Source: Candidatus Omnitrophota bacterium (lineage in GTDB: Bacteria > Omnitrophota > Gorgyraeia > Zapsychrales > JANLHA01). From it: a DNA stretch of 64,000 nucleotides. Below the pieces are notes generated by a model, which was given only the letters and a program-made list of their open reading frames with translations, searched no databases and was not told where the DNA came from. This document shows positions 19,563 to 51,165 of this stretch, piece after piece (the first letter of the stretch is position 1; each line of letters opens with the position of its first letter). Made by a program: the position numbers and the translations under genes. The stretch covers positions 47,551 to 111,550 of the forward strand of contig JBFMEN010000069.1 of the NCBI GenBank assembly GCA_040753435.1. The letters run 5' to 3'.

Positions 19563-20422
19563 TCGACTGGCCGATCGGAATTTCGACAGGTTGTTTTTAT
19601 GAGAAGTCAATTTTTGACTGCCTTGAAGCAATAATGTCCAATGGCTTCTCGATCCTTGAAATCAGCTCGGCGCTGCAGCATTTAAATTATCACGATCGGG
19701 GAATGGTTCAGAGCGTTGCAAAAACTATCAAAGAATTGGGGATGGAGGCTTATTCCTTCCACGCCCCCTTTAGCGATGACATTGATATCGCCGCTCTTGA
19801 TGAGGCTCATTATGAGCGATCAGTCAATGAAATCATGCTTGCTATCGAGGCGGCTTCCATCTTAAATACTCGTTATTTTCTGCTTCATCCTGGCCCAAGC
19901 AGAGAATCTCGGCAGGCAGAAAACGAGTACTATCAACGAATGACACGGGTATCGGAAGCGATAAAAAAGATGGCCAGGCAATGCAAGAAACTGGGAATGC
20001 TGTTGATTTTGGAAAATATGCTCCCACATCTTTTATTTAGCAGCCCAAAGGACATTCTCTGGATCATCGGATCAGTTGAAGAAACGAATATCGGGATCTG
20101 CCTGGATACGGGACACGCGTTTCTGTCCGACGAGCTTTATGCGATCGCTCATAAGTTCGCAGGTCACACGCAGCTGATTCACGCTCATGATAATTACGGG
20201 AAACACGATGATCATCTCCCGCCCGGGAAAGGAAGGATAGATTGGAAATATTTTTTAAGAGAAGCGGCGGAATCAGGCTTTAACGGAGGGTTGATCATTG
20301 AATTGAACAAGGGAGATAAAAGTACTGAAAAAATTCTTGAAGAGGCCAGGCATTCTCGGGCTTTGATGAGAGAAATTCTCAGGGAGATTGAATTGACTTT
20401 GCCGCCAATTTCTGGGGAATAG
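19559..20422 (+). CDS. Xylose-isomerase-like TIM-barrel protein (AP endonuclease 2 / sugar-phosphate isomerase-epimerase superfamily)
   Basis: Metal-ligand motifs YFLLHPG, LLILEN, IGICLDTGHAF and LIHAHDNYG are in the order seen in Endo IV, UvdE and sugar isomerases. The ATG at 19559 overlaps the upstream stop (ATGA); the alternative GTG is at 19553. Confidence 0.7.
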   Translation: MIDWPIGISTGCFYEKSIFDCLEAIMSNGFSILEISSALQHLNYHDRGMVQSVAKTIKELGMEAYSFHAPFSDDIDIAALDEAHYERSVNEIMLAIEAASILNTRYFLLHPGPSRESRQAENEYYQRMTRVSEAIKKMARQCKKLGMLLILENMLPHLLFSSPKDILWIIGSVEETNIGICLDTGHAFLSDELYAIAHKFAGHTQLIHAHDNYGKHDDHLPPGKGRIDWKYFLREAAESGFNGGLIIELNKGDKSTEKILEEARHSRALMREILREIELTLPPISGE

Positions 20423-20434
20423 AGGGATTCAATC

Positions 20435-21115
20435 ATGGCGAAAAGGTGTTTGAGGGGAAATATCCGTTTATTGTTTTTGGTTGTCGTGATCTTTAATTAC
20501 TTAATCGTCTCAGATTCCATGGCATTCACCAGGAATGACGCGCAATTGTGGACGGCCGTCATGTTAAAAATGCATATGTCTTATGACAACTATCTTTACC
20601 TGGGGCGAGAGTTTCGCTTCGGGAATCATTGTAAGGAAGTGATTTATCGTTACACAGAAGGCGGGGTTTCGTTTGAGAAATATGAATGGGTTCATATAGC
20701 CATGCTTTATCGTTACGGGACACGTAAAAAAGACGGCGTCTGGGAAGAGGAAAGCACGCCGCATTTAAATGTCACATTTATTAAACGGACAGATTCGATC
20801 TTTTTAAGCACAAGAAATCGTATCGAATACGAAATGTTACGGAAGACAAAAGATATTTGGCGTTACAGGAACAAGATTATTATCGGGATCCCGATGAAAT
20901 GGAATAAAAAGGAATTAAGACCCTATGTCGCTGACGAATTCTTTATCGATTTTGATCAAGACTGCCATAACATCAATCAAATATCGGGAGGGATCAGGTT
21001 TGAGCTAGTTGAAAATTTTCTAGCAGATGTTTTCTGCTTATGGCAAAGCAGGGTGGATCGCAATTGGGAATCGCCAGATCATGTCGTCGGGATGAATTTG
21101 GAGCTGACGTTTTAA
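20435..21115 (+). CDS. Outer-membrane protein, DUF2490-like
   Basis: N-terminal hydrophobic signal, alternating amphipathic beta-strand pattern and C-terminal ...LELTF (terminal Phe). The DUF2490 assignment rests on overall resemblance only. Confidence 0.4.
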
Positions 21116-37454: not shown

Positions 37455-40313
37455 ATGAATTTCCAAAAGCAAAAATTTCATACTTTTTTCAGAGTACTCG
37501 CCATGAGCATTCTTGTGCCTTTCGTGTTTTCGGTCGTTTGCCCAGCTGCGTTTACGCCGGCTTTTGCTCAAACAGTCCTTAATCTGCCTGCCCCCGGGAC
37601 AATGATCTCACCAAGTCCCGGATACAATCCGGCAACGATTGTCGGGATGACGGTCCATCCGGATGACCCGTTTTTGTTTGATTTCATTGTTCATCCGGGT
37701 GACGACAAACTTGAGGGAGAGAATCTGCAAAGAGAATCGCTGAAGATGGTCCGGTATTTTATGGCTGCATTGACAGTTCCTGAAGATGAGATGTGGGTCA
37801 ACCTCTCGCCTTATGAAAAAGACCGCATTGTTCCTGTAGGTTTTGGCGATACGGAGATGGGAAGGGATCTACTGGCCCAGGATTATATCCTGAAACAAAT
37901 GACGGCATCTTTAATGCATCCTGGGGAAAAATCGGGAAGCGAATTCTGGACGCGTATACGGGAAAAGGTAAGGGAAAAATTCGGGACAAATGAAATTCCC
38001 GTGAACACATTTAACAAAGTCTGGATCGTTCCGGACAAGGCCACGGTGTATGCCAGCGGAAGCCGTGTTTTTGTCGTGGATAGTCACTACAAGGTCATGC
38101 TGGAGCAAGATTATTTTGCCATGAAAAGCCATTCCGGATCTTCAGAAAATGGGAAAAACCTGGCAGTCCATGGGGAGTCCGGGAATGAAAGGGCAGATGA
38201 ACTGTCAAAAAAAATCACCCGGGAAATCATTCTTCCCGCGATCGAGCGGGAGATCAATGAAGGCCGGACTTTTGCCAATCTCCGCCAGATATCAAATGCG
38301 GTGATCCTTGCGACATGGTACAAACGTCATGTCGTTGGCGGAGCTCTTGAATTATTTTACGCTGACAAAAATAAAACCGCCGGGATCAGCAACGGGGATA
38401 AGGAGATCACCGAAAAAATTTATAATCAGTATGTCGAATCGTTCAGGAAGGGTGTCTATCATTTCATCAGGGAAGAGTACGATGAGACAACCCGGGAAGT
38501 CATCCCGCGGGAGTATTTTTCAGGAGGAGTTGTGCAGAAAATCGCGGATATGGATACGGCCGGTGACATGGGCGAGCTGGAAGAGACCATTCGCGGGAGT
38601 TCGGAATTCCAGATCCGGTTTGATCCGGTTAGAGTAAAGGAAGACGGGCAGGACGCGGCGATGTTAACGTCTGAGGAGGTCGCGCGGATGCTGGAAGAGT
38701 CGAACCAAGATTACTATTCGCGGTTAGGGGTTGATAAATCGGCCGATAAAGCGGCGATAAAGGCAGCTTACCGGAAGTTGATTATGAAATGGCATCCGGA
38801 CAAGAATGGCGATACATCCGGAGATCTTAAAGATTCGTTTACAGAAATAGCCCAGAATCTTTCCGAGGCCTGGGAAATATTACAGGATGAAGAGCGACGA
38901 AAAATTTATGACGAGGGAGGTCTGGGAAGGGGTGCAGCCGGTTTTGGGCAAGAAGAAGATTTTAATTTCGATGAATTTTTCAGCCAGTACCGGTGGAAGG
39001 CGCCCCGAACCCTGGATGAGATTTTGCGTGATCTTGATTCGGATAATAAAAAGGTATCTTTTCAATCTCTCGGAGAAATTGAAAAGATGATCCGCGAGGA
39101 GAGATGGCATGAATTTTCACCAGAGTCTGTTGAAGAGGTAAAGAATCTTATTGCATCAATAAAGCGGATTAAGGATGGGCATGTCCGGATGAGAGCGGTT
39201 GAGGCGCTGGGACGAGTGGCCAGAAAAGAATTTGTGACCCTTTCCGGGGGGCTCGGACGTTGGAACAATTATGAAGGGGATCAGGAAGAGACGCCCCAAA
39301 CTCTTGCGACAAACGGTTTGATTGAAATCCTTCAAACCGATGATGACCCTTCTGTTTCATATTCTTCAGTCAATACTTTAGCAGAGATCGGAGGGGTGAC
39401 TGCGACGGAAGCTCTGGTCCGGAATGTCAATCATCCTCATTCGGCAACTCAAAAATTGATCAGGTGGGTTTTAATTGCCTTGGGGAACAACACGGCTTAT
39501 CCCGGGAAAGAGACATCGCGTTTGACAGTCCGTTTGCTGAATAAAAGTCTTTTATTCGGCAAACGGCAGATACAGGCCGCCGTTAAAAATATTCTGGATG
39601 AGATTAGGGAAGAATTCAAACAACCGGTTGATATGACTCCCCGCAAAATGGCGATCACTCGCGTCCTGGGGGATTTGTCGAACGGATGGAATGACGGGCG
39701 CGAGGGGCGCGGGACTTTTAAACTGCACAGCCCGGAGTATGATGACTATAATTACATGGAGTCGCTGGAATTTAATATCATTTTATACGCAGAGCCTTTT
39801 TATCAAGGAGAGGTGGAGGAAGTTTTCAAGATCCTTGATGAGCTTAAAGAGCGTTTTCCGGCGCTGATTGTGAAGTTTGTTGAAGATGAAGAGATCACAG
39901 CCTTCGGGCTGCATCTCCTGGGGAATGACGAGGCGCTTGCGCACATGAACTTCCGGGGTAAAGTTGAGCAATGGCTCCGGGACAGGCTTGAGGAGGTTCT
40001 TACCGAGGAAGGGATGGATGGAGGAACTGGAGATCAGGATTCGGCCATGCTGGGAGACGGGGGAAGAGCAGACAATTTTTTTCAAAGTGGTGAGGATACA
40101 AAAGGCGGTATTGATTTAAACCCGGCTCATATTGATATTGAGACGAAACAGGCGGACAGTAAAGAAATTATTTTTTCTCTCGGAAGCGGTGTTCCGTTTA
40201 TGGATTCGATTGAAGGTTTTCAGCCGGTCATTATTCACGTTGCGCCGGTGACAAATATTCCAGGACTTCTTGGCCGTAAGGAAGATCCGGAGGAATTTTC
40301 GACGAAGTCCTGA
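37455..40313 (+). CDS. Large exported/membrane-anchored hypothetical protein (952 aa): conserved N-terminal domain shared with the next gene, internal DnaJ (J) domain, HEAT-like helical repeats, acidic linker and conserved C-terminal 'GGIDL' tail
   Basis: N-terminal hydrophobic signal ending AFAQT. Residues ~60-400 are paralogous to the next ORF (WVNLSPYEKDRIVP; LLAQDYILKQMT; FNKVWIVPDKA; VMLEQDY; NEGRTFANLRQISNAVILATWYKR; IPREYFSGG). A canonical J-domain lies at 38709..38920 (DYYSRLGV...KWHPDKNGD...WEILQDEERRKIYDEGG). It ends with GGIDLN...FQPVIIHVAPVTNIPG. Confidence 0.6.
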   Translation: MNFQKQKFHTFFRVLAMSILVPFVFSVVCPAAFTPAFAQTVLNLPAPGTMISPSPGYNPATIVGMTVHPDDPFLFDFIVHPGDDKLEGENLQRESLKMVRYFMAALTVPEDEMWVNLSPYEKDRIVPVGFGDTEMGRDLLAQDYILKQMTASLMHPGEKSGSEFWTRIREKVREKFGTNEIPVNTFNKVWIVPDKATVYASGSRVFVVDSHYKVMLEQDYFAMKSHSGSSENGKNLAVHGESGNERADELSKKITREIILPAIEREINEGRTFANLRQISNAVILATWYKRHVVGGALELFYADKNKTAGISNGDKEITEKIYNQYVESFRKGVYHFIREEYDETTREVIPREYFSGGVVQKIADMDTAGDMGELEETIRGSSEFQIRFDPVRVKEDGQDAAMLTSEEVARMLEESNQDYYSRLGVDKSADKAAIKAAYRKLIMKWHPDKNGDTSGDLKDSFTEIAQNLSEAWEILQDEERRKIYDEGGLGRGAAGFGQEEDFNFDEFFSQYRWKAPRTLDEILRDLDSDNKKVSFQSLGEIEKMIREERWHEFSPESVEEVKNLIASIKRIKDGHVRMRAVEALGRVARKEFVTLSGGLGRWNNYEGDQEETPQTLATNGLIEILQTDDDPSVSYSSVNTLAEIGGVTATEALVRNVNHPHSATQKLIRWVLIALGNNTAYPGKETSRLTVRLLNKSLLFGKRQIQAAVKNILDEIREEFKQPVDMTPRKMAITRVLGDLSNGWNDGREGRGTFKLHSPEYDDYNYMESLEFNIILYAEPFYQGEVEEVFKILDELKERFPALIVKFVEDEEITAFGLHLLGNDEALAHMNFRGKVEQWLRDRLEEVLTEEGMDGGTGDQDSAMLGDGGRADNFFQSGEDTKGGIDLNPAHIDIETKQADSKEIIFSLGSGVPFMDSIEGFQPVIIHVAPVTNIPGLLGRKEDPEEFSTKS

Positions 40314-40366
40314 CGAAATAATTTTACGTCCGGCCAACCGCCGTAGCAGGCTTTCTGTTAAAGACG

Positions 40367-43300
40367 TTGTCTAAAAAAGGGGAGGAAATTAACTTGTGTA
40401 ATAAAAACATGAACAGGCAAAAATTACCATTGCTGCACCGGTTATTTTCCGCGGGGCTAAGCTTTGTCATAACACTGACTTTTTCTATTCCTGTCCATGC
40501 CCAGGAGGGGCTTGCCCTGAATGGAGTTGCGGCGTCTCCAATGCCGGTTTCCGTGGCGGTAACTGCTGCCCCTGTTGAAAATCCGGCGTTCATTCTTTCA
40601 AAAAAACCGGCGAATGGGGATGCTCCCTTTGTCCCCGTGATGATCAAAGGGATTAAACTCTTTCCGGATGACCCTCTGCGCGTTGATTTTTTCATTGATA
40701 CCGGCACCTCCAAATTACCCGACGTTGTTTTGGAAAAAGAGTTCTCCAGATTGATCTCCTATTTTCTGGCGGCATTAACCGTCCCGGATGACGACCTGTG
40801 GGTTAATTTATCGCCGTATGAAGAAGACCGCGTCATCCCGGAGGAATTCAGCCGTACCGGGATGGGCGCAGATTTGCTCGCCCAGGATTATCTTTTGAAA
40901 CAAGTGACATCCGCGTTTCTTTCACCTGAGGGGGAATCCGGCAAAAAATTCTGGGACCGTATTCGTGAAAAAACAGCGGAGCTTTACGGTGAAAAAGATA
41001 TTCCTGTCGAAGTTTTCAATAAAGTCTGGATCGTCCCGGAAAAGGCCGTTGTGCATGAAAGTGCGGACGGAGCCTTTGTCACGGAAAGCACGCTGCAAGT
41101 CATGCTGGAGGAAGATTATTTAAGTACCACAGAGCCCGGGAATCCCAGTACCCCAAAAAAATCTTTGGCTGGGGATCAGGGGAGCAGGGGAACCGGGGCA
41201 CTTACAAAAGAAATCATGCGAGCCATAATCATCCCGGAAATCGAAAAAGAGGTCAATGAAGGAGAAATCTTCGCCCCGTTACGGCAAGTCTATAATGCGG
41301 TTATTCTGGCGGCATGGTTTAAACGGAATTTTAAAGAGACGTTCTTGGGGAAAGCTTATATCGATCAAAATAAAGTCGGCGGCATCGATACCGCCGACGC
41401 GTTGATCAAAGATAAAATTTATCAGCAATATGTCGATGCCTTTAAAGCCGGGGCGTATGATTTTATTAAAGAAGACTATGATCCGGTTTCGAACGAGATC
41501 ATTCCGAGGCAATACTTTTCCGGGGGGCTTAAACTTGATCCGGATGGGGCCTATACGGAAGAGCCCTCTGCGAACGAGCCCGTCAAAGTGACCGTAGACG
41601 GCGCCATGCTTTCCGCGTCAGTCAAGCTTTCCCCCGAGAAGAAACCGCCGGATGATCAAGGCCGCTCCTCTTCAGAAAGTTCAGAAACGGATGAGTATTT
41701 GCAATCAGTTAAAGAAAAAGCAATTGCGGCGGTTCTTGCGATGAGTACCGGAGAAAAGACGACCAGGAGCTCATGGACCGAGAAACTTCTGTCCCTCGCA
41801 GCTCCTTATGTGATCGATGATTTTCCCACGCTCTATTATGATCAAATCCAGGAAGCAGAACAGGTGAAAAGGGTTTTATTATTGATGATTCGTGTAGATC
41901 TTGTTGGTGCTGTCTATTTTTCAATACCTGTTGATGCTGAAGAAATGGATAAGTGGGAAGGAGAATTGCGAAGAATAAAACCATTCATTTTGGGAAGGGA
42001 AGACAGGAAAGAGATCGATGATTTGTTAGAACTGGTCGGATTTGTCCGTAAATGGCTTGGTTTTTTTGGATCTGAGGCCGACGCAACGTTTCATATCGAT
42101 CATTTGATAAAACATGGATTTTTAAGGGACACGTTCACTACAACCGCTGAAAAAGCGCTGAATTCTTTTTTTGACATTTTGCTGCGAGGCAGCATACCCC
42201 CGGATTTTGATGAGACTCCTTATAACGAATTGCTATGGTTTCTTAATGAATCGGCATCAAATGAGAAGCAAACTGAATTTTTTCAAATCCGTTCGGAGTT
42301 TATTCGAAGTTTTATCGCTGTTAAAGATGCCGTAATTTCCAGCAAAAATTTCAGCGCGTCTTTACAGCATTTGCGAAGAAATTCATTTTTTAACTTTTTT
42401 GTGTTTTGGAGCGATGATTTAAAAGAAAGAACAGAAAAATTTGATAAAAAATTATTAAAAGAAAAAGTGATTGCCATTAATTCTGATGGAATGACAGAGG
42501 GCGAACTTGATGAGATCGATCCGAATATCCGGGAAATCAAAGAGGGGATACAAAATATCCGGAAGGCCATACCCCATACGGTCGACAAGGCCTCCGTTCT
42601 GGACATTCTGCTGGGGGAAGGAAATGAGAAGGTGTCTGAAGAGTTTTTCAAGCTGGCGTCGTTGTTGCGGTTGAGTTTTTCCTATGAAGGCACATTTACT
42701 GACTCACGCCCGCCTCTTAAATACGCGCTGGAGGAAGGGATCTATTTTTCAATCGGACCTGATTTGTATATCACTCCGGTCACGGAGGCTTTTCGCCGGC
42801 CGATGATTTTTTCCAAAAATGCCGACGGCTCGATCAAGTTTGCATTTGAGATTGTCATCAGCGGCGAGCAGTTCAGTAAATTATATACCGGGGCCCGCAA
42901 CCGGTATGATGTTTCGCTTGAATTGAAGAAAACTTATCCGGACAAAGAATATGGCGTGCAACCGATTTATTTCAGAAAATTTCCGAAATATGCCTTCACA
43001 TTTTATGGCCGGAGACGGCTTCCTTTTCTTGTCAAACCGCTGGAAGTGATCGCTTTCGATTATCAATATGACGGCAAACGCCTGAACAATGTTTCTTCAG
43101 AAATGATAGCGGTGTGGGCGAATGAGTTAGGGATCAGTCAGAAAGACGTGGAGTTAATGATTGCCGAACAGGTTGTTGAGGAAGTGGTGGCCATGCATGC
43201 CATGGGCTATGTCGGCAACGGGGAGAATCGTTATTTTAAGGGTGTCCTGTCCTATGACCAGCATATTGAGAATTTCCGTTGTATCTTTGACCCAGCAGAC

Positions 43301-43951
43301 AGACTGAAGCCTGTAAAGATTCTGTATGTCGGTGACTTTGTGTATTTCGAGAAAGTGGATTCACCGGAACGAAGAAAAAATGATGTGCTCAGCATTGCCG
43401 GCGGAATTTGCCATAATATCCATGGGTTAAGAGATCTGTTTAAGATTCTCACTGTTGAAGACATTTACGCGCTGTTCAAAGAAAAATACGCTGAATTCGG
43501 GATCGCGGAGAAATATCCGGAAGGTCTTGCGGCATCATCAACAGTGAACGACAATGAAGTATTGACGGAGCCGGACTCTGATGCCGATGAAAATTCGGAC
43601 AATCCGGATGCTGAAGGCGATCAGAAGGGGGCGGCAAATTTTGACGAGCAAGATGGCGTTGAAATTTTAACTGAGCAAACTGACGCCGACATCCCGCATG
43701 CCAATAAAAATGATGCAGTTCCCGACGGGGTGCTAAACGGCGGCACTGCCGATTCCGCCGAAAAAGGCGGTATTGACCTTACTGCGGGCAGGCTTGGCCT
43801 TGAAGTCAAAGGAAACAAGGGACAACCTGCGCAGCCCTTTTGCCGGAAGGGTTCATGTGTGGATATGGAAAGTATGGATATCTCCGGATTTGTTCCTGTT
43901 ATTCTTCGCGTGTCGGTGGCTGATTTGCAAGGAATTCCTGGCAGTCACTAA
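40367..43951 (+). CDS. Large exported hypothetical protein (1194 aa): paralog of the previous gene (shared N-terminal domain and C-terminal 'GGIDL' tail), long unique helical middle region
   Basis: Signal peptide (..FSIPVHAQEG). The N-terminal ~400 aa align with the upstream protein (WVNLSPYEEDRVIP; LLAQDYLLKQVT; FNKVWIVPEKA; VMLEEDY; NEGEIFAPLRQVYNAVILAAWFKR; IPRQYFSGG). An acidic linker precedes a C-terminal GGIDLT...FVPVILRVSVADLQGIPG. The likely true start is TTG 40394 (after AGGGGAGG) or ATG 40409. Confidence 0.6.
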   Translation: MSKKGEEINLCNKNMNRQKLPLLHRLFSAGLSFVITLTFSIPVHAQEGLALNGVAASPMPVSVAVTAAPVENPAFILSKKPANGDAPFVPVMIKGIKLFPDDPLRVDFFIDTGTSKLPDVVLEKEFSRLISYFLAALTVPDDDLWVNLSPYEEDRVIPEEFSRTGMGADLLAQDYLLKQVTSAFLSPEGESGKKFWDRIREKTAELYGEKDIPVEVFNKVWIVPEKAVVHESADGAFVTESTLQVMLEEDYLSTTEPGNPSTPKKSLAGDQGSRGTGALTKEIMRAIIIPEIEKEVNEGEIFAPLRQVYNAVILAAWFKRNFKETFLGKAYIDQNKVGGIDTADALIKDKIYQQYVDAFKAGAYDFIKEDYDPVSNEIIPRQYFSGGLKLDPDGAYTEEPSANEPVKVTVDGAMLSASVKLSPEKKPPDDQGRSSSESSETDEYLQSVKEKAIAAVLAMSTGEKTTRSSWTEKLLSLAAPYVIDDFPTLYYDQIQEAEQVKRVLLLMIRVDLVGAVYFSIPVDAEEMDKWEGELRRIKPFILGREDRKEIDDLLELVGFVRKWLGFFGSEADATFHIDHLIKHGFLRDTFTTTAEKALNSFFDILLRGSIPPDFDETPYNELLWFLNESASNEKQTEFFQIRSEFIRSFIAVKDAVISSKNFSASLQHLRRNSFFNFFVFWSDDLKERTEKFDKKLLKEKVIAINSDGMTEGELDEIDPNIREIKEGIQNIRKAIPHTVDKASVLDILLGEGNEKVSEEFFKLASLLRLSFSYEGTFTDSRPPLKYALEEGIYFSIGPDLYITPVTEAFRRPMIFSKNADGSIKFAFEIVISGEQFSKLYTGARNRYDVSLELKKTYPDKEYGVQPIYFRKFPKYAFTFYGRRRLPFLVKPLEVIAFDYQYDGKRLNNVSSEMIAVWANELGISQKDVELMIAEQVVEEVVAMHAMGYVGNGENRYFKGVLSYDQHIENFRCIFDPADRLKPVKILYVGDFVYFEKVDSPERRKNDVLSIAGGICHNIHGLRDLFKILTVEDIYALFKEKYAEFGIAEKYPEGLAASSTVNDNEVLTEPDSDADENSDNPDAEGDQKGAANFDEQDGVEILTEQTDADIPHANKNDAVPDGVLNGGTADSAEKGGIDLTAGRLGLEVKGNKGQPAQPFCRKGSCVDMESMDISGFVPVILRVSVADLQGIPGSH

Positions 43952-44125: not shown

Positions 44126-45544
44126 ATGCGTAACAGGAGCCAAATGTCTTTACCTGTTTATATCGAAACAATCCCGGCCGACCGATTTACTCCCGTTGTT
44201 GTTTTTAAGAAACTGAACGGAAAGGCGCTGCTGGAATCCGCAGTTCTTGAAATCGGCAAGAGCCGTTATTCGATTATCCTGGTTGAAGAGGCTTTTCGAT
44301 TGGTCCTTAATAACCGAGGCGTTTTAAAATACGAAGGATTGAAGGAAGAAATCCTTTCTCCGGATCCGCATAATTTTCTTTCTATTCTGGAGGGCCAGGG
44401 AAAAAACGTCGCATCATCGAAAGATTTTGGCATGCCGATTCCCGCTTCCGGAATAGGGTACCTCGGGTATGAAACAGCGGCGTTGTTTGACAAAATCCAT
44501 TTGTCAAAACAGGATGACGAACTTCAACTGCCCGATGCCATCTTTTTATTCGGATCACTGTTTATTGTCTTTGATCATTACAAGGATGAGCTTTACATCA
44601 TCGCTATTGATTATGACGGGCAGGGAAAAGAGAAAATTAAAACCGTTAAGGAACGGCTGATGGATTTTGATTTCAGGGCGTATCAAACCGATGAAAATTT
44701 TTATCATTGCACCGGACAGATTGAAGCCGGTAAAGAGGCGTATATCAGCGGAGTCAAAAAATTGAAAGAACACATCCGCGCCGGAGATATTGTTCAGGGC
44801 GTTCTTTCCCGGAGAATCACGATAAAAACTTTCCTGGATCCCCTTGATGCCTACTGCCGTTTAAGACGTATTAACCCCTCGCCGTATTTGTTTTATTTTG
44901 ACTTCACTGATTTTAAATTATTTGGCTCTTCACCCGAACTCATGGTTTCCTATAATGACGGGACAGCTACGATCAAACCGATTGCGGGGACCCGTTCCCG
45001 GGGGAAAACGCGCCAGGAAGACATTGCTTTGGAAAAAGATTTGCTGGCTGACGAAAAGGAGCGCGCTGAACATTTGATGCTCGTTGATCTTGCGCGGAAT
45101 GATTTGGGACGAACGGCAAAACCCGGGACGGTGAGTCCCAGATCGTTATATTCGGTGGAGCGGTATTCCCACGTCATGCATATTGTGTCGGAGATTGGAT
45201 CACAGGTGGCCAGAGACTATAACGCGTATGACCTCATAAGAACGACCTTTCCGGCTGGAACAGTGACCGGCGCTCCTAAAATCAAGGCGATGGAGCTGGT
45301 ATCTGATTATGAAAACGTCAAGCGGGGACCTTATGCCGGGCTGGTCGGCCATTTTGACATGAACGGAAATTTTGATTCATGCATAACGATCAGATCCATG
45401 ATCCATAAGGAAGGAACATATTATATTCAAGTCGGGGCCGGGATTGTTTATGATTCCGTACCGGAGCGGGAGTTTGACGAAACAATGAAGAAAGCAGGGG
45501 CGATGATCAGGTCTTTGGGAATAAATCTGGAGAGTGGTCTCTAG
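44126..45544 (+). CDS. trpE: Anthranilate synthase component I
   Basis: LMLVDLARNDLGR, FPAGTVTGAPKIKAMELVS and GPYAGLVGHFDMNGNFDSCITIRS. The start is probably the second Met at 44144 (RBS AGGAG at 44135). Confidence 0.85.
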   Translation: MRNRSQMSLPVYIETIPADRFTPVVVFKKLNGKALLESAVLEIGKSRYSIILVEEAFRLVLNNRGVLKYEGLKEEILSPDPHNFLSILEGQGKNVASSKDFGMPIPASGIGYLGYETAALFDKIHLSKQDDELQLPDAIFLFGSLFIVFDHYKDELYIIAIDYDGQGKEKIKTVKERLMDFDFRAYQTDENFYHCTGQIEAGKEAYISGVKKLKEHIRAGDIVQGVLSRRITIKTFLDPLDAYCRLRRINPSPYLFYFDFTDFKLFGSSPELMVSYNDGTATIKPIAGTRSRGKTRQEDIALEKDLLADEKERAEHLMLVDLARNDLGRTAKPGTVSPRSLYSVERYSHVMHIVSEIGSQVARDYNAYDLIRTTFPAGTVTGAPKIKAMELVSDYENVKRGPYAGLVGHFDMNGNFDSCITIRSMIHKEGTYYIQVGAGIVYDSVPEREFDETMKKAGAMIRSLGINLESGL

Positions 45545-45563
45545 GCCGATAAAAGCGAGGTTA

Positions 45564-47186
45564 ATGATGATTCTTATGATTGATAATTATGATTCATTTA
45601 CGTACAACATTGTTCAACTTGTTGAGACTCTGGGCTATAAAGTCAAATCGGTGCGTAATGATGAAATCACCTTGGATGAAATCGGCCGGATGAAGCCTTC
45701 ACACATCATTATTTCACCTGGGCCGGGAGATCCATCAGATGCCGGTATTTCGCTTAAAGTTATCCGTCGCTTTGGCTCAAAGATTCCAATCCTTGGCGTT
45801 TGTCTTGGTCATCAATGCATCATCCAGGCTTACGGCGGAAAAATTATCGGCGCGCAAAAAATTGTTCATGGAAAAACTTCGCAAATTGTGCATGACAACA
45901 AAGGACTTTTCCGTAATATTCCTCAAAATGCCGCAGTTGTCCGGTACCATTCATTGTGTGGCGATCCGGTTTCATTGCCGGAATGCCTTGAAGTGACCGC
46001 TGAGACGATTGACGATAAGACGATTATGGGCGTTCGTCACCGTAACTATCAGGTGGCGGGAGTGCAATTTCATCCCGAATCGATCGGTACGGAAATAGGC
46101 AGAAAACTAGTTCAGAATTTTTTTAATTATAAAATTGAGGAGCCGCAGAAGTTCGCGTTATTAAGCAAACTGATGCAAAAGACAAACTTAACGTTGATGG
46201 AAAGTTATGCTTTGATGGATGAGGTTACCGATGGCGAATTAACGGAAAGTCAACTGGGGGCTTTTCTGGGAGCGTTAAATGTCAAAGGCGTTACGCCGAC
46301 TGAATTAACTGGTTTTGTCCGTGTGCTTCGGGAGAAGACAGGAGTTCAATCCCAATTGAAAGGGTTGATCGATACGTGCGGAACCGGCGGTGACGGCAAG
46401 CATACCTTCAATATTTCAACGGCAGCTTCTCTTATTTGCGGGGCTGCCAATCTGAAAGTGGCCAAGCATGGTAATCGGGCGATGAGTTCAAAATCGGGAA
46501 GTTTTGACTTTTTAGACGCGCTGGGAATTGAAACCCAGGGGGATTTGAAAACCAATTTGTCTTCCATTCGAGAAAATAACTTCGCTTTCTTTTTTGCCCA
46601 AAAATTTCATGCCGCAATGCGCCATGTGGCAAAAACGCGCCAGGAGCTTAAGACCCGGACCGTCTTTAATATGATAGGTCCGCTCGCCAATCCGATGCCG
46701 CTGACCTATCAAATAACCGGTGTTTTTTCTTCCGGGATTCTGGATTTGTTTATTGAGACCATGAAAAAACTTGGAAGAAAACACGCGATGGTAGTTCATT
46801 CATGTGACGGGCTTGATGAAATAAGCGTGTGTGAAAAGACTATGGTCAGGGAATTGAAAAATGGTAAAATTCTGGCGTATGAGATCGACCCAAAAGATTA
46901 CGGAATCCCGGGTTTCAGCCTGAAAGATCTGGAAGGGAAATCCGCTTTGGACAACGCGGAAGTTTTTAGGCGTATCATCGGAAAGAAGAAACTGCCCAGA
47001 CGATTTTCGGCGATTAAATCTGCGATTTGTTTGAATGCAGGCGCTGCTATTTATGTCGGGAATAAGGCTAAGACGATCAGGGAAGGATATGAAGCCGCGT
47101 TGAGGATTATTGAAAGTAAAAATTTTGAAAATTATATACAAAGGCTTGCCAGGCGGCAGACTGGCGCCGGGACTGGTCGTAAGTGA
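45564..47186 (+). CDS. trpGD: Anthranilate synthase component II (glutamine amidotransferase) fused to anthranilate phosphoribosyltransferase (TrpG-TrpD)
   Basis: Class I GATase (ILMIDNYDSFTYNIVQ; GVCLGHQ; catalytic H...E region), then TrpD motifs (CGTGGDGKHTFNISTAAS; GNRAMSSKSGSFD). The ATG at 45564 follows AGCGAGG. Confidence 0.85.
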   Translation: MMILMIDNYDSFTYNIVQLVETLGYKVKSVRNDEITLDEIGRMKPSHIIISPGPGDPSDAGISLKVIRRFGSKIPILGVCLGHQCIIQAYGGKIIGAQKIVHGKTSQIVHDNKGLFRNIPQNAAVVRYHSLCGDPVSLPECLEVTAETIDDKTIMGVRHRNYQVAGVQFHPESIGTEIGRKLVQNFFNYKIEEPQKFALLSKLMQKTNLTLMESYALMDEVTDGELTESQLGAFLGALNVKGVTPTELTGFVRVLREKTGVQSQLKGLIDTCGTGGDGKHTFNISTAASLICGAANLKVAKHGNRAMSSKSGSFDFLDALGIETQGDLKTNLSSIRENNFAFFFAQKFHAAMRHVAKTRQELKTRTVFNMIGPLANPMPLTYQITGVFSSGILDLFIETMKKLGRKHAMVVHSCDGLDEISVCEKTMVRELKNGKILAYEIDPKDYGIPGFSLKDLEGKSALDNAEVFRRIIGKKKLPRRFSAIKSAICLNAGAAIYVGNKAKTIREGYEAALRIIESKNFENYIQRLARRQTGAGTGRK

Positions 47187-47211
47187 ACAGTCCTTCGATA
47201 ACACGACGTCT

Positions 47212-48420
47212 ATGAGTAAATATTTTGGACAATTCGGCGGACAGTATGTGGGCGAGGTTTTAAAACCCGCGCTGATCGAACTTGAGAAAGCGGTGCGGGA
47301 TATTTTACCCTCAGCAGATTTTCAAAATAATCTTGGCGAAATGCTGAAGAATTATGCCGGCCGTCCGACACCGTTATATTTCGCAGAGAATGCTACGCGT
47401 GATCTGAATGGAGCAAAAGTTTATATTAAACTTGAAGGTTTAGCGAACACCGGCGCGCATAAAATTAACAATGCCCTTGGACAGGTGCTGCTTGCGAAAA
47501 AAATGGGGAAACGGAGGGTGATCGCTGAAACCGGCGCTGGGCAACATGGGGTGGCAACCGCGGCAGCCGCCGCCAAGCTCGGACTGGAATGTGAAGTTTT
47601 TATGGGCGCGGTTGATGTTCGGAGACAACAGCCGAATGTTTTTTTGATGAAACAATATGGAGCAACGGTGACTGAAGTAAACGAAGGGACGCGGACGTTA
47701 AAAGATGCCGTGAACCGCGCCTTGAAAGAATGGGCTGTTCGCTCTAATGACACTTTCTATGTGCTCGGCTCGGCCCTGGGTCCGTATCCTTATCCTGATA
47801 TGGTTCGTGAATTCCAGTCTGTTATCGGGAGGGAGATCCGTGATGAAATCCTTAAACGAGAAGGCCGCCTGCCGGATATTTTGATCGCCTGCTGCGGCGG
47901 AGGATCCAACGCGATAGGGACATTTACATCATTTATGAATGATGCGCTGGTCAAAATGATCGCGGTTGAAGCCGGCGGCACTGGTGATAAACCGGGTGAG
48001 CATGCAACACGGATGAAGGGGGCCGGACGGCTCGGGATCATTGAAGGGTATAAATCATTTTTCCTCCAGGATGAAGATGGTCAGGTCCTTCCGACCCACT
48101 CCATATCTGCCGGGCTTGATTATGCAGGGATCGGACCGCAGGTGGCCTTGATGGGAGTTGAGGGGCGTATTCAATTTGAAAAGGCTTGTGATCAGGAGGT
48201 CCTGAAGGCGTATCAGTATTTCGCCAGAAAAGAAGGTTTGCTATTCGCCCTTGAATCTGCACATGCAGCCGCACACGCGTTAAAAATCATTCCCGGGTTA
48301 TCAAAGAATCAAATTGTAGTGATTACAATGTCGGGCCGCGGAGACAAGGATATTTTTATTACTGCCAAAGAACTGTACACGGAAGAGTGGAAGAAGTTTT
48401 TAAAAAATGAAAGCAATTAG
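47212..48420 (+). CDS. trpB: Tryptophan synthase beta subunit
   Basis: FGQFGGQYV at the N-terminus, PLP-lysine region GLANTGAHKINNALGQ and GGGSNAIG. The true start is the ATG at 47212; the listed ORF at 47110 overlaps trpD. Confidence 0.9.
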   Translation: MSKYFGQFGGQYVGEVLKPALIELEKAVRDILPSADFQNNLGEMLKNYAGRPTPLYFAENATRDLNGAKVYIKLEGLANTGAHKINNALGQVLLAKKMGKRRVIAETGAGQHGVATAAAAAKLGLECEVFMGAVDVRRQQPNVFLMKQYGATVTEVNEGTRTLKDAVNRALKEWAVRSNDTFYVLGSALGPYPYPDMVREFQSVIGREIRDEILKREGRLPDILIACCGGGSNAIGTFTSFMNDALVKMIAVEAGGTGDKPGEHATRMKGAGRLGIIEGYKSFFLQDEDGQVLPTHSISAGLDYAGIGPQVALMGVEGRIQFEKACDQEVLKAYQYFARKEGLLFALESAHAAAHALKIIPGLSKNQIVVITMSGRGDKDIFITAKELYTEEWKKFLKNESN

Positions 48421-48446
48421 CAGCCAGCCGCAGGGCAGGAGTTATT

Positions 48447-49181
48447 ATGTCTATCAAAATCATGACCCATCTTGTCGCGGGATTTCCTGATCCTGATGGT
48501 TTCAGAAAGGCCCTGAAGGGACTCAAAGAAGGAGGTTCGGATATCCTGGAGCTTCAGATCCCATTTTCTGATCCAACGGCTGATGGACCAGTCATCACTA
48601 ATGCCTGTGAGCAAGCTATTGCGCGTGGTTTTAAAGTCCACCAGACTTTTGATTATATTCAACAGGCCAGACAGGAAGGGTTTGAGCGAATTATAGTTAT
48701 GACCTACGCCAATATAGCCTTTAATTACGGGATAAAGAAATATGTCGTTGATTTAAAAAGTGCGGGTGTTGAGGCGGCCCTTGTCCCTGATCTGCCGCTG
48801 GAAGATGAAGAAGGATTTTATCAATGTGCTTTTGAAAACGGTTTGGAACCCATGCCGGTTGCCGTGGTTGGAATGCCGGCCGGGCGACTGGAGCTGTTGA
48901 ATGGGAAACCGTTTAAAAAGATCTACATTTCTCTTCGCGCCGGGACGACTGGAAAAACAACCGATATTTCTCAAGAAACCCAGGAGTTTCTAGATACCTT
49001 ATCGAAGTATGAACGTTTCGCCGGATTCGGCATCAGGTCACGCGAACAGGTTCAGTTGCTGCAAGGCCATGCTGAGGCGGCGGTTATCGGATCTTATTTT
49101 ACGTCATTGATTCAAGATGCCTGCTTGAGCAAAAAGGATATTGGCAGGGAATTAAAATCAGCAATGAGCATCTTGAAATAA
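48447..49181 (+). CDS. trpA: Tryptophan synthase alpha subunit
   Basis: LVAGFPDPDGF...LELQIPFSDPTADGPVI matches the TrpA N-terminus. Confidence 0.8.
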   Translation: MSIKIMTHLVAGFPDPDGFRKALKGLKEGGSDILELQIPFSDPTADGPVITNACEQAIARGFKVHQTFDYIQQARQEGFERIIVMTYANIAFNYGIKKYVVDLKSAGVEAALVPDLPLEDEEGFYQCAFENGLEPMPVAVVGMPAGRLELLNGKPFKKIYISLRAGTTGKTTDISQETQEFLDTLSKYERFAGFGIRSREQVQLLQGHAEAAVIGSYFTSLIQDACLSKKDIGRELKSAMSILK

Positions 49182-49230: not shown

Positions 49231-51165
49231 ATGCGGTCTCTTCAAAATTTTTCTTATTATCTATCCCGATTTGTTTTCTGGCTTTTTCCAGCCATTGTGC
49301 TGGAGCCTGTTTTCTTTATGCAGTTTTTGCCGACTCCTACCGGGGTCGTTATTATTTATCTTGAGGTTCTGGTCTGGGGTATTTTATTATTTTTAACAAT
49401 CTTCTTTTTTTCCGGTTTCTACGCAAGCAGTGTTGATTTGATCACGGAACGTTCTCCCGTCATTTATCTCTCCCAAATCAAATCGAACTTTAAACGATTC
49501 TGGTTTCCGTATACAATTTTTCTTGCTACCCCTTATATTATTCACCTTGTTTTTTACTTTTTTTCCTATATTCAAGATTCGGAATCGTTGAATATCCGGC
49601 TTATTCGGGGCGCATTGGATGGTATTTTGCTGCTTGTTTTCATAAGCGTAATCATGAAGCGAAAGGAAAAAGAATTTAATTGTTTCGAGTTTTTCAGGTA
49701 TGTACTTTTAACTCCCCGATTTTTTGTATTTTTGATCTTTGCCGCGCTTATTTTTCTTTGTGAATTTTTCTATATCCAGATCCCTTTGAATTACAGATCC
49801 TGGTTAGCGCTGTTATTGATTACAATGAATCAGTTCCTTCATTTCAGTCTCTTAAGCGTTTTGTTAAACGCGGTTTATTTATCGAATAAAACGATCTTTA
49901 CGCGTAATGACGCCCCCGAGATTTATTTTGTTGATCCGTCCAGCCCCGGTATTTATCGATCCGTGATTGCGGGCTTGATGTCGGAAGGATCCGGTATCTT
50001 TTCATTAATTAAAGCGCTGACTCCCCCGAAATATAAATTAAAAGAGTTTCGATGGGTTATGTGGCGAAATGAGATGTTCTGCGATGGAAAACTTGTCGCC
50101 ATTACATGTTTTACATCAAATTGCGCGGAAGCTTATTGGGTTGCCAAACGGTTTAAAGAAAGAGGATCCAAAGTGGTCATGGGAGGGCCTCATGTCATGT
50201 TTATGACGGAGGAAGCTCTGACATTTTGCGATTCAGTCGTTATGGGTGAGTTGGAGACCGTTTGGGAAGAAATTATAAAAGATTTTGAAAACGGGGCGAT
50301 GAAACCAGTCTATGATCGCAGGTGTGAAGATGTTCCAGAGCGGATTTGGGAAAAAGTCCGGGATTTGTCCGGAAAAGAATTGGAACCCATTCTTCAAATC
50401 GGGAGGGGCTGTAAATACAACTGTGATTTTTGTTCGATTTCAGCGATGACGAACAGAAAAATCCGTTATTTCAACCTTGATCATGTGGTTGATATGGTAA
50501 AGAAGGTGACAAATTTCCGTCCCGGAAAGTGGCTTCTTTTTTTTGACAGCAATATTTATTTGAATCCTCAACGGTTCCGGGAATTCGCTGAAAGGATGAT
50601 TCCTTTTAAGATCAAATGGAATTCGTCGTGCAGTATCGACATTGCCGGGAATGAAGAGGACCTGGCTCTGGCGAGAAAATCCGGTTGCGAAGCATTACTG
50701 ATTGGTTATGAAGTTTCTGACGAATCACCGGAGGCAGCGAAAGGCGGCAAGTTTTCTTATGCGAAAAAATATGTCGAGATGACTAAAAAAATTCACAAGG
50801 CCGGGATAGGCGTTAAGGCTCACTTTATGTGTGGATTTGAGAAGGAAGATACTAAAGTTTTATTTCGTTTATGGTGGCTGTCCTTCAGATTATTCCCAAT
50901 GACGGCGGCTGTTCTTGTGTTGACGCCTTTCCCCGGCACTGCTGTTACAAACAAACTTTTTAATGAGGAGCGGATTAATAATTTAAATTGGGCCAATTAT
51001 GATTGTATAAATCTTGTTTTTGAACACCCGTCATTTAACCCTGTTCTTTTTAAGTTGTTTTTCCCGGTCTTTCTCACCTTTTTCTTTTTGACGACCAGCC
51101 GATTAGGAATATTTCTCATGGGTTTACTAATATGGCAAAGCTTTTTGTCTGGTTTTTTGCATTAA
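49231..51165 (+). CDS. Membrane-anchored B12-binding-domain radical SAM protein
   Basis: About 250 aa of polytopic hydrophobic N-terminus. Then a cobalamin-binding-like Rossmann region (KLVAITCFTSNCAEAYWVAKRFKERGSKVVMGGPHV) and the radical-SAM cluster motif GRGCKYNCDFCS (CxxxCxxC). Additional C-terminal hydrophobic helices. The start codon is uncertain. Confidence 0.6.
   Translation: MRSLQNFSYYLSRFVFWLFPAIVLEPVFFMQFLPTPTGVVIIYLEVLVWGILLFLTIFFFSGFYASSVDLITERSPVIYLSQIKSNFKRFWFPYTIFLATPYIIHLVFYFFSYIQDSESLNIRLIRGALDGILLLVFISVIMKRKEKEFNCFEFFRYVLLTPRFFVFLIFAALIFLCEFFYIQIPLNYRSWLALLLITMNQFLHFSLLSVLLNAVYLSNKTIFTRNDAPEIYFVDPSSPGIYRSVIAGLMSEGSGIFSLIKALTPPKYKLKEFRWVMWRNEMFCDGKLVAITCFTSNCAEAYWVAKRFKERGSKVVMGGPHVMFMTEEALTFCDSVVMGELETVWEEIIKDFENGAMKPVYDRRCEDVPERIWEKVRDLSGKELEPILQIGRGCKYNCDFCSISAMTNRKIRYFNLDHVVDMVKKVTNFRPGKWLLFFDSNIYLNPQRFREFAERMIPFKIKWNSSCSIDIAGNEEDLALARKSGCEALLIGYEVSDESPEAAKGGKFSYAKKYVEMTKKIHKAGIGVKAHFMCGFEKEDTKVLFRLWWLSFRLFPMTAAVLVLTPFPGTAVTNKLFNEERINNLNWANYDCINLVFEHPSFNPVLFKLFFPVFLTFFFLTTSRLGIFLMGLLIWQSFLSGFLH

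Follow-up and report, generated by a model that had tools for sequence, protein, structure and literature searches.

LPXTG, PEP-CTERM and GlyGly-CTERM signals are short conserved C-terminal modules carried by large, lineage-restricted and functionally mixed sets of Sec-exported proteins, while the C-terminal domain (CTD) of the type IX secretion system (T9SS), a Bacteroidota-type system, is a folded β-rich domain of 70-100 aa borne by signal-peptide proteins with diverse functional parts. In a 64,000-nt stretch of contig JBFMEN010000069.1 from a Candidatus Omnitrophota bacterium (hereafter the window), two adjacent same-strand paralogues, here called proteins A and B, end in a common tail of about 60 aa which shares these traits with both groups and nevertheless departs from each of them. 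We propose, at about even chances, that a carrier made of two pieces and exported via Sec encloses a cargo inserted between them, and that this tail is its C-terminal piece. Compared with the LPXTG, PEP-CTERM and GlyGly-CTERM signals, the tail has no transmembrane (TM) helix and usually no basic end, is predicted to form β-structure and is followed by acidic residues; it matches none of their models, no cognate enzyme was seen nearby, and it is coupled to one particular N-terminal domain (the N-domain). It is shorter than the T9SS CTD and matches no CTD model (Pfam, TIGRFAM Por secretion tail), and whereas CTD proteins have no common N-terminal domain, the tail is tied to its N-domain in full-length proteins.

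The translations of 40104-40313 and 43766-43951 (GGIDLNPAHIDIETKQADSKEIIFSLGSGVPFMDSIEGFQPVIIHVAPVTNIPGLLGRKEDPEEFSTKS and GGIDLTAGRLGLEVKGNKGQPAQPFCRKGSCVDMESMDISGFVPVILRVSVADLQGIPGSH, each followed by a stop codon) are the C-terminal ends of A and B, respectively. The two tails aligned in pairwise BLASTP at E=7e-4. An independent profile hidden Markov model (HMM), assembled from 31 tails of other organisms with A, B and the closest relative of A left out, gave 65.3 bits for A (E=7e-20) and 21.5 bits for B (E=4e-6) among the 342 open reading frames (ORFs) of the window, and none of the others scored. The similarity between the two C-termini, first noticed in the first-pass annotation of the window, is thus real. 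The B tail covers only positions 2-50 of the tail profile, i.e. the first two thirds, and ends directly after the PVILRV strand; it is truncated or degenerate relative to the family consensus. That annotation had also described A and B as giant and otherwise divergent proteins, a description that had to be corrected. At the lengths given in Table 1 they are large rather than giant, and they have an N-terminal region of 377 aa in common (43% identity, E=7e-97) which contains the signal peptide and a conserved domain. The acidic linkers that it had reported before both tails were found in A and B, but Asp and Glu make up 15.7% of the 40 aa upstream of the tail and 14.9% of the cargo interiors across 211 family members, so that an acidic linker characterises these two proteins and is not a family trait. 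Protein A shows 100% sequence identity to an NCBI entry derived from a metagenome-assembled genome (MAG) of Candidatus Omnitrophota, and P0002, an orthologue of A, has the same architecture. For protein B, the in-frame ATG at 40409 is probably the true start and the mechanically assigned TTG at 40367 wrong, because the former restores the family N-terminal consensus MNRQKLPLLHRLFS and the VHA/Q site; an additional Ala/Pro-rich insert lies downstream of the signal peptide.

Far from being confined to two proteins through simple duplication, the tail was found to define a large protein set. In a library of 1.84 billion representative proteins clustered at 50% identity, the number of clusters matched by the tail profile was 5,646 at a cut-off of E<=1e-3 and 2,323 at E<=1e-10, and a search with A returned at least 3,746 proteins at E<=1e-3, nearly all of which matched through the N-terminal ~350 aa alone. 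At least 594 matching stretches were obtained from a scan of species-representative genomes, 581 of them confirmed, and the best 80 of these all fell in Omnitrophota MAGs, some labelled ‘uncultured Planctomycetales’. The tail is therefore conserved, C-terminal and lineage-specific, as had been supposed, and the family represents a very large, uncurated, Omnitrophota-restricted architecture for which no sequence or structural precedent was found. Each MAG carries several to a dozen or more copies, and same-strand tandem arrays of up to four genes were present at 29 of 80 loci, the A-B pair being one such array.

The tail is essentially always paired with one specific N-terminal domain of ~320 aa, and is always single-copy and C-terminal. 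It stood at the C-terminus in all of the best 150 tail-profile matches, which were up to 5,808 aa in length. Fifty-eight of these were at least 700 aa long and lay outside the set of A homologues, and the N-domain was present in 49; the nine others (753-1289 aa), together with all of the shorter tail proteins, had no signal peptide, as expected for what look like 5'-truncated gene calls. Among the best 120 A homologues, ~97 had one N-terminal N-domain and one tail at most 74 aa from the C-terminus, and most of the others are interrupted by the end of a contig (one stops at ‘...KGGID’). We also examined 79 genomic loci together with the window (1.39 Mb), where 67 closed ORFs contained exactly one N-domain and one tail. 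Six closed ORFs held a tail only, and since five of these directly follow an ORF with an N-domain only, the arrangement indicates frameshifted genes. Exceptions to the pairing were the tail-only ORFs of loci L004 and L030, which have no N-only partner, an N-only ORF with a diverged tail (EGGINLN...GLIPKLRSLTPF) and a short N-only ORF near a contig end. One further N-only ORF belongs to a family gene with a single in-frame stop (L063, 2906-2908), past which the same frame stays open over at least 539 aa until the contig ends; sequencing error, pseudogenisation and recoding of the stop are all conceivable here. A 3,230-aa member (L011, 9977-19666) was found to end in a strongly diverged tail (EGGINLNMAAAQF...GLIPKLRSLTPFIIPPGLPALIG), with a fragment of the same variant ~700 nt further downstream (20333-20623). 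A tail subfamily thus exists that falls below the HMM threshold, and the family counts are lower bounds.

The N-terminal anatomy is that of exported proteins. Family members have a signal peptide with a basic n-region and a hydrophobic core, and 65 aligned members showed Ala at -1 in 54, Ala, Val or Ser at -3 in 53, Gln at +1 in 61 and Pro at -6 in 38. Such anatomy is that of a textbook signal peptidase I site, and Sec export is the expected route. The conservation of this site supports the earlier prediction that the tail is found on exported proteins, and the family would be expected to leave the cytoplasm via Sec with cleavage of the signal peptide. In the AlphaFold2 (AF2) model of A, a helix spans aa 2-28 within the signal peptide. 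The N-domain (~320 aa, 50-60 invariant columns) is predicted to be an alpha/beta domain with long helices and carries the invariant motifs WVNLSPYE, TxxGxxLxQDYxLKQ, FxKxWxxP, ExExNxGxxFxxLRQ and, at its end, YFSGG; none of its invariant positions is His or Cys. It had no match in Pfam, NCBIfam or the PDB, and the carrier appears to be a fold without a solved relative. We define the family by an AxA/Q signal peptide, an N-domain with WVNLSPYE, LAQDYxLKQ and YFSGG, and a C-terminal GGIDxNP...PVIINxxP tail; all of these are found in A, and in B they occur with an extended N-terminal linker and the truncated tail.

The tail consensus reads GGID(L/F)NPxxLxLxxxG, ~15 aa, IxGxxPVIINITPVTNxPxLLG and then an acidic stretch, with invariant Gly-Gly-Ile and Pro positions. 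In 211 tails, no hydrophobic stretch (one without charged residues or N, Q, P and H) exceeded 9 residues, which was the maximum, a basic C-terminal cluster was present in 19 only, and the residues past the tail strand comprised 16.9% D/E against 9.4% K/R. The PVIINITPV strand alternates hydrophobic and polar residues in a sheet-like manner, unlike a membrane helix. These tails consequently fail the anatomy of defining motif, TM helix and basic cluster that characterises LPXTG, PEP-CTERM and GlyGly-CTERM signals. A final (L/V)(S/T)x(L/I)(N) motif closes the sequence in about 31% of members. Neither the N-domain nor the tail had a match in Pfam or NCBIfam, whether full proteins (E<=1), a set of 46 members or six isolated tails (E<=10) were searched, and curated models such as the NCBIfam LPXTG anchor were among those that returned nothing; the earlier statement that the tail matches no known C-terminal sorting-domain model therefore stands. 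No description of the family was recovered by full-text literature searches for the motif strings or in papers on Omnitrophota. The idea that the tail duplicates the segment following the N-domain, as both start with GG, was rejected, their similarity not exceeding that of shuffled controls. Two further secretion types can be set apart on anatomical grounds. Type V autotransporters have a C-terminal (or N-terminal) translocator that forms a β-barrel and measures at least about 250 aa, whereas the tail has ~60 aa and 3-4 strands, no Pfam autotransporter match was obtained, and the N-domain is predicted to be alpha/beta with no β-barrel. Type I secretion substrates of the RTX kind lack a signal peptide and carry Gly/Asp nonapeptide repeats, whereas this family has a signal peptide, a single GGID and no such repeats.

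Between the N-domain and the tail lies a hypervariable cargo, unalignable between members and between about 150 and over 5,000 aa long. Pfam assignments included DnaJ, HEAT, TetR_N, radical SAM with B12-binding, ROK, CheR and other methyltransferases, phosphoglycerate mutase-type, Macro, HATPase, peptidases M20 and M28, trypsin-like, thymidylate kinase, phosphoglycerate kinase (PGK), TIM with aldolase, UDPGP, glycosyltransferases, NUDIX, aldo-keto reductase and GH130, and kinases, hydrolases and pyruvate phosphate dikinase (PPDK) were also present. In A, the cargo contains DnaJ (E=7.5e-20) and HEAT_2 (E=2.6e-7) domains, and the cargo of B matched no Pfam or NCBIfam family. The very large members P0170, P0196 and P0212 (4,000-5,800 aa) have a single N-domain, a single tail and a multi-enzyme cargo; the cargo of two very large members comprises a complete PPDK with a methyltransferase and a UDP-glucose dehydrogenase with a GHMP kinase, respectively. 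A preprint (10.64898/2026.06.07.730766) that gives roughly one TM helix for every 1,000 aa had prompted the idea that giant Omnitrophota proteins are tandem fusions of the N-domain/tail module. This idea was rejected, as no ORF in the 80 loci had more than one N-domain or more than one tail. The top tail score in the 1.84-billion-protein library (108.7 bits) corresponded to one full tail plus a fragment, and no protein there had two full tails; the Omnitrophota giants are thus not concatenations of the carrier module. The ‘Archaeovorins’ of the same phylum (bioRxiv 10.1101/2023.11.21.568195) resemble the family in their HEAT_2, HATPase, radical SAM, NUDIX, HAD and PPDK_N content and differ from it in the many TM helices and SecA-like domains of these giants.

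Conserved trafficking parts combined with a swappable variable part, numerous paralogues and a possible proteolytic release of the variable part are likewise features of polymorphic toxins (Rhs/YD, CDI and MARTX; PMC3482391). The present family differs from these in being conserved at both ends with the variable part internal, in a cargo of mostly metabolic and regulatory enzymes, in the absence of evident immunity genes and in a carrier with no sequence or fold relationship to theirs. The MASP proteins of Trypanosoma cruzi (PMC4897614) form a large paralogous family with conserved ends and a hypervariable middle; their ends, however, are a short signal peptide and a glycosylphosphatidylinositol-addition signal, whereas those of the bacterial family are a 320-aa folded domain and a folded tail.

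Two short motifs mark the borders of the cargo. DxAM(L/I/M) occurred 3.7 times per 1,000 aa past the N-domain and 5.5 times before the tail against 0.9 in the cargo interior, and (A/S)SSP(V/I/L) occurred 3.8 and 6.3 times against 0.5, an enrichment of 4-12 times at both borders. Proteins with a motif at both ends had the same type at each end in 52 cases and different types in one. Since these paired, lineage-specific motifs are accessible and lie at the base of the insertion, within predicted disordered necks, they are candidate cleavage or docking sites.

Structure prediction was consistent with an insertion. For P0112, a member of 619 aa, the AF2 model from a 66-sequence alignment had a mean predicted local distance difference test score (pLDDT) of 75.7 and a predicted template modelling score (pTM) of 0.69. 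Confidence was high in the N-domain (pLDDT above 90 for most of residues 40-330), in a β-strand past it (380-391, pLDDT 94) and in the tail strands (551-553, 560-565 and 584-597, pLDDT 91-94), and dropped below 50 in the linkers, or necks, at the cargo borders (395-434 and 537-547). The model of A (46 sequences) showed the same pattern at lower confidence, with the N-domain at 80-94 and the tail (aa 881-900) at about 80. A lone strand is not confidently placed in a model unless it is paired with something, and the pre-cargo strand would therefore form one unit with the tail strands, probably together with the N-domain sheet, the cargo being an insertion into this unit. The features of A and B are collected in Table 1.

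Table 1 Features of proteins A and B, in positions of the window (a slash marks the predicted signal peptidase cleavage site)
Feature	Position	Strand	Description
Protein A, ORF	37455-40313	+	952 aa
A, signal peptide	37455-37568	+	aa 1-38, MNFQKQKFHTFFRVLAMSILVPFVFSVVCPAAFTPAFA/Q; basic n-region, hydrophobic core, AFA/Q cleavage site
A, N-terminal carrier domain	37569-38531	+	aa 39-359, ending EYFSGG; 43% identity to B
A, post-domain strand and first cargo-flanking motif	38604-38666	+	EFQIRFDPVRVKEDGQ-DAAML, aa 384-404; DAAML at 38652-38666
A, cargo	38667-40037	+	DnaJ J-domain (aa 419-486), HEAT repeats (aa 620-682), alpha/beta C-terminal part
A, second cargo-flanking motif	40038-40052	+	DSAML, aa 862-866, within acidic Gly/Asp linker
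A, tail	40104-40313	+	GGIDLNP ... FQPVIIHVAPVTNIPGLLG, short acidic extension, stop; 65.3 bits
Protein B, ORF	40367-43951	+	1194 aa counted from TTG
B, likely start and signal peptide	40409-40501	+	MNRQKLPLLHRLFSAGLSFVITLTFSIPVHA/Q; VHA/Q cleavage site
B, N-terminal carrier domain	40502-41530	+	ends QYFSGG; N-domain HMM positions 47-351 at ORF aa 86-388
B, first cargo-flanking motif	41597-41611	+	DGAML; preceded by strand PVKVTV
B, cargo and acidic linker	41612-43765	+	cargo about 700 aa; second flanking motif degenerate (PDGVLNGG)
B, tail	43766-43951	+	GGIDLTAGRLGLEV ... FVPVILRVSVADLQGIPGSH, stop; truncated vs family consensus; 21.5 bits

Based on these features, we propose that the family follows the order cleavable Sec signal peptide, ~320-aa N-domain, short basic β-strand, hypervariable cargo and ~60-aa tail, in which the N- and C-terminal pieces would form one carrier and the cargo would be an insertion. 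The tail would be a folded β-element rather than a cleavable sorting tag and, with the post-domain strand and probably the N-domain, would close the base of the cargo loop. The DxAM(L/I) or (A/S)SSP(V/I) motifs in the two disordered necks are candidate processing or recognition sites through which the cargo could be released or handled after export, and the carrier could give diverse cargo one common handle after Sec, be it for secretion, surface attachment or delivery. Several observations weigh against this proposal. PGK, PPDK, thymidylate kinase, radical SAM, TetR and J-domain cargo need cytoplasmic cofactors or partners (a J-domain requires an Hsp70 partner), and do not fit easily with a periplasmic or extracellular location, except if their site of action is within another cell. 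Neither flanking motif was seen, under strict patterns, in about a third of members. In protein B the final third of the tail is missing and the second motif is degenerate, so that either the tail end and second motif are dispensable or B is decaying. Contact between tail and N-domain is suggested by the confidence values and pTM of the models, and mean-field direct coupling analysis (211 sequences, effective number 188) was too noisy, with hub columns dominating, and gave no tail/N-domain contacts. The cytoplasm-type cargo argues for a site of action within a different cell, or else the predicted topology may itself be in error. A predatory or host-dependent lifestyle has been reported for the phylum (PMC10066038; bioRxiv 10.1101/2023.11.21.568195) and would fit the former. 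In its widest form, which we consider unlikely, the proposal would make this a universal carrier of these ultra-small bacteria, exporting hundreds to thousands of cytoplasm-type enzymes and regulators, either as effectors sent into prey or host through cleavage at the motifs or as an extracellular enzyme coat held together by strand exchange, with glycolytic enzymes, PPDK, nucleotide and sugar-nucleotide enzymes, radical SAM proteins, J-domains and TetR as its repertoire. That it constitutes a new export or assembly system is, in our estimation, similarly improbable.

The nearest rival to the two-piece carrier retains the sorting or anchoring role given to the tail in the first-pass annotation. 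The tail would then be an autonomous C-terminal domain recognised, and perhaps removed, by a dedicated machine after Sec, which by analogy with the T9SS CTD or a sortase-like system would bring about secretion or covalent anchoring, while the N-domain would have a separate job. Its strictly C-terminal position, its conservation over thousands of exported proteins and its absence elsewhere speak for such a role, as does its β-rich fold of a size near that of a small CTD, and the (L/V)(S/T)x(L/I)(N) ending of some members might serve for recognition. The tail was, however, not found on any full-length protein without the N-domain, and it has neither the TM helix, the usual basic cluster nor the CTD model match of the known signals. 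The pre-cargo strand was also predicted as confidently as the tail itself, suggesting that the two are paired. No sortase, exosortase or rhombosortase was found among the ~30 annotated ORFs at 18171-56271, i.e. within about 20 kb of A and B in the window, nor was one recurrent in the 79 other loci; no protease, sortase or secretion gene recurs among the neighbours of family genes at the 80 loci; and T9SS core genes (SprA, PorV, PorU etc.) were absent from the annotated regions of the window, to which that statement applies. We therefore regard an autonomous domain as rather unlikely. Of the original suggestion, a post-Sec sorting role of the tail is possible, as half of a folded carrier; a portable, cleavable tag does not fit an element that has no TM helix and essentially always accompanies the N-domain.

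Assembly in trans is a more doubtful explanation, in which the tail would act as a donor strand entering the N-domain of another member, by analogy with donor-strand exchange in chaperone-usher pili, and the dozens of paralogues in each genome would polymerise into an extracellular lattice or fibre displaying the many different cargo domains. It would account for the many paralogues per genome, their tandem same-strand arrays and the high conservation of N-domain and tail among paralogues with unrelated cargo, and an AF2 monomer model would place a trans strand in cis; the truncated tail of B and the diverged tail of L011, on the other hand, point to an element tolerant of change. Slightly less probable again is a scaffold on the cytoplasmic face, where the N-terminal hydrophobic segment would be an uncleaved anchor and the N-domain and tail would organise cargo enzymes at the membrane inside the cell. 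Most of the cargo consists of enzymes that need cytoplasmic substrates and cofactors, and the preprint cited above makes the case that membrane anchoring and a cytoplasmic enzyme content apply to many of the long proteins of Omnitrophota. The positive charges N-terminal to the helix nevertheless predict an N-in, C-out topology, and the A/V/S-x-A/Q site with Pro at -6 is conserved far past the needs of an anchor and predicts cleavage. Lastly, A and B are adjacent paralogues and could owe their common tail to tandem duplication alone, with no function attached. This we consider very improbable, given that the tail with its invariant positions is kept in all of those 5,646 clusters while the region between N-domain and tail is unalignable.

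Should the two-piece carrier be confirmed, one uncurated scaffold would organise a sizeable share of the exported proteome of an uncultivated phylum and would explain the signal peptides on typical cytoplasmic enzymes in these genomes. Two HMMs would then provide a sequence handle with which to catalogue, for any Omnitrophota genome, the proteins that are secreted or displayed, and the two short motifs would be testable processing sites. Public annotations currently name members by their cargo (‘DnaJ domain-containing protein’, ‘phosphoglycerate kinase’, ‘HEAT repeat domain-containing protein’, ‘UTP-monosaccharide uridylyltransferase’) or as ‘hypothetical’, and metabolic reconstructions could count such signal-peptide carrier fusions as ordinary cytoplasmic enzymes.

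At the DNA level, exchange of cargo cassettes via repeats at the cargo borders was considered and rejected, the repeats being short and at chance level; the single exact 15-mer repeat, AAAAGGCGGTATTGA at 40100 and 43762, encodes KGGID. Within the cargo coding region of A, two near-perfect hairpin palindromes were observed (39530-39566 and 39056-39088), with arms of 18 and 16 nt, 94% complementarity and a 1-nt loop. A free-standing 644-aa B12-binding radical SAM protein is encoded at 49231-51165, a few genes downstream of B, and its PF02310 and PF04055 pair is also found as cargo in P0018 and P0092, which suggests that cargo may be captured from ordinary genes.

The neighbours of A and B in the window are housekeeping genes, among them a ThiF-like gene upstream and trpE, trpGD, trpB and trpA downstream. 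The trp genes follow B directly (44126-49181); trpE comes first, then a trpG-trpD fusion and then trpB and trpA, and neither trpC nor trpF lies between them. Around family genes in general, the only recurrent neighbours were a response-regulator/EAL family (12 of 80 loci) and trp genes. Specifically, trpC-, trpF- and trpGD-like ORFs adjoin family genes in several other loci, which suggests conserved synteny of the insertion site.

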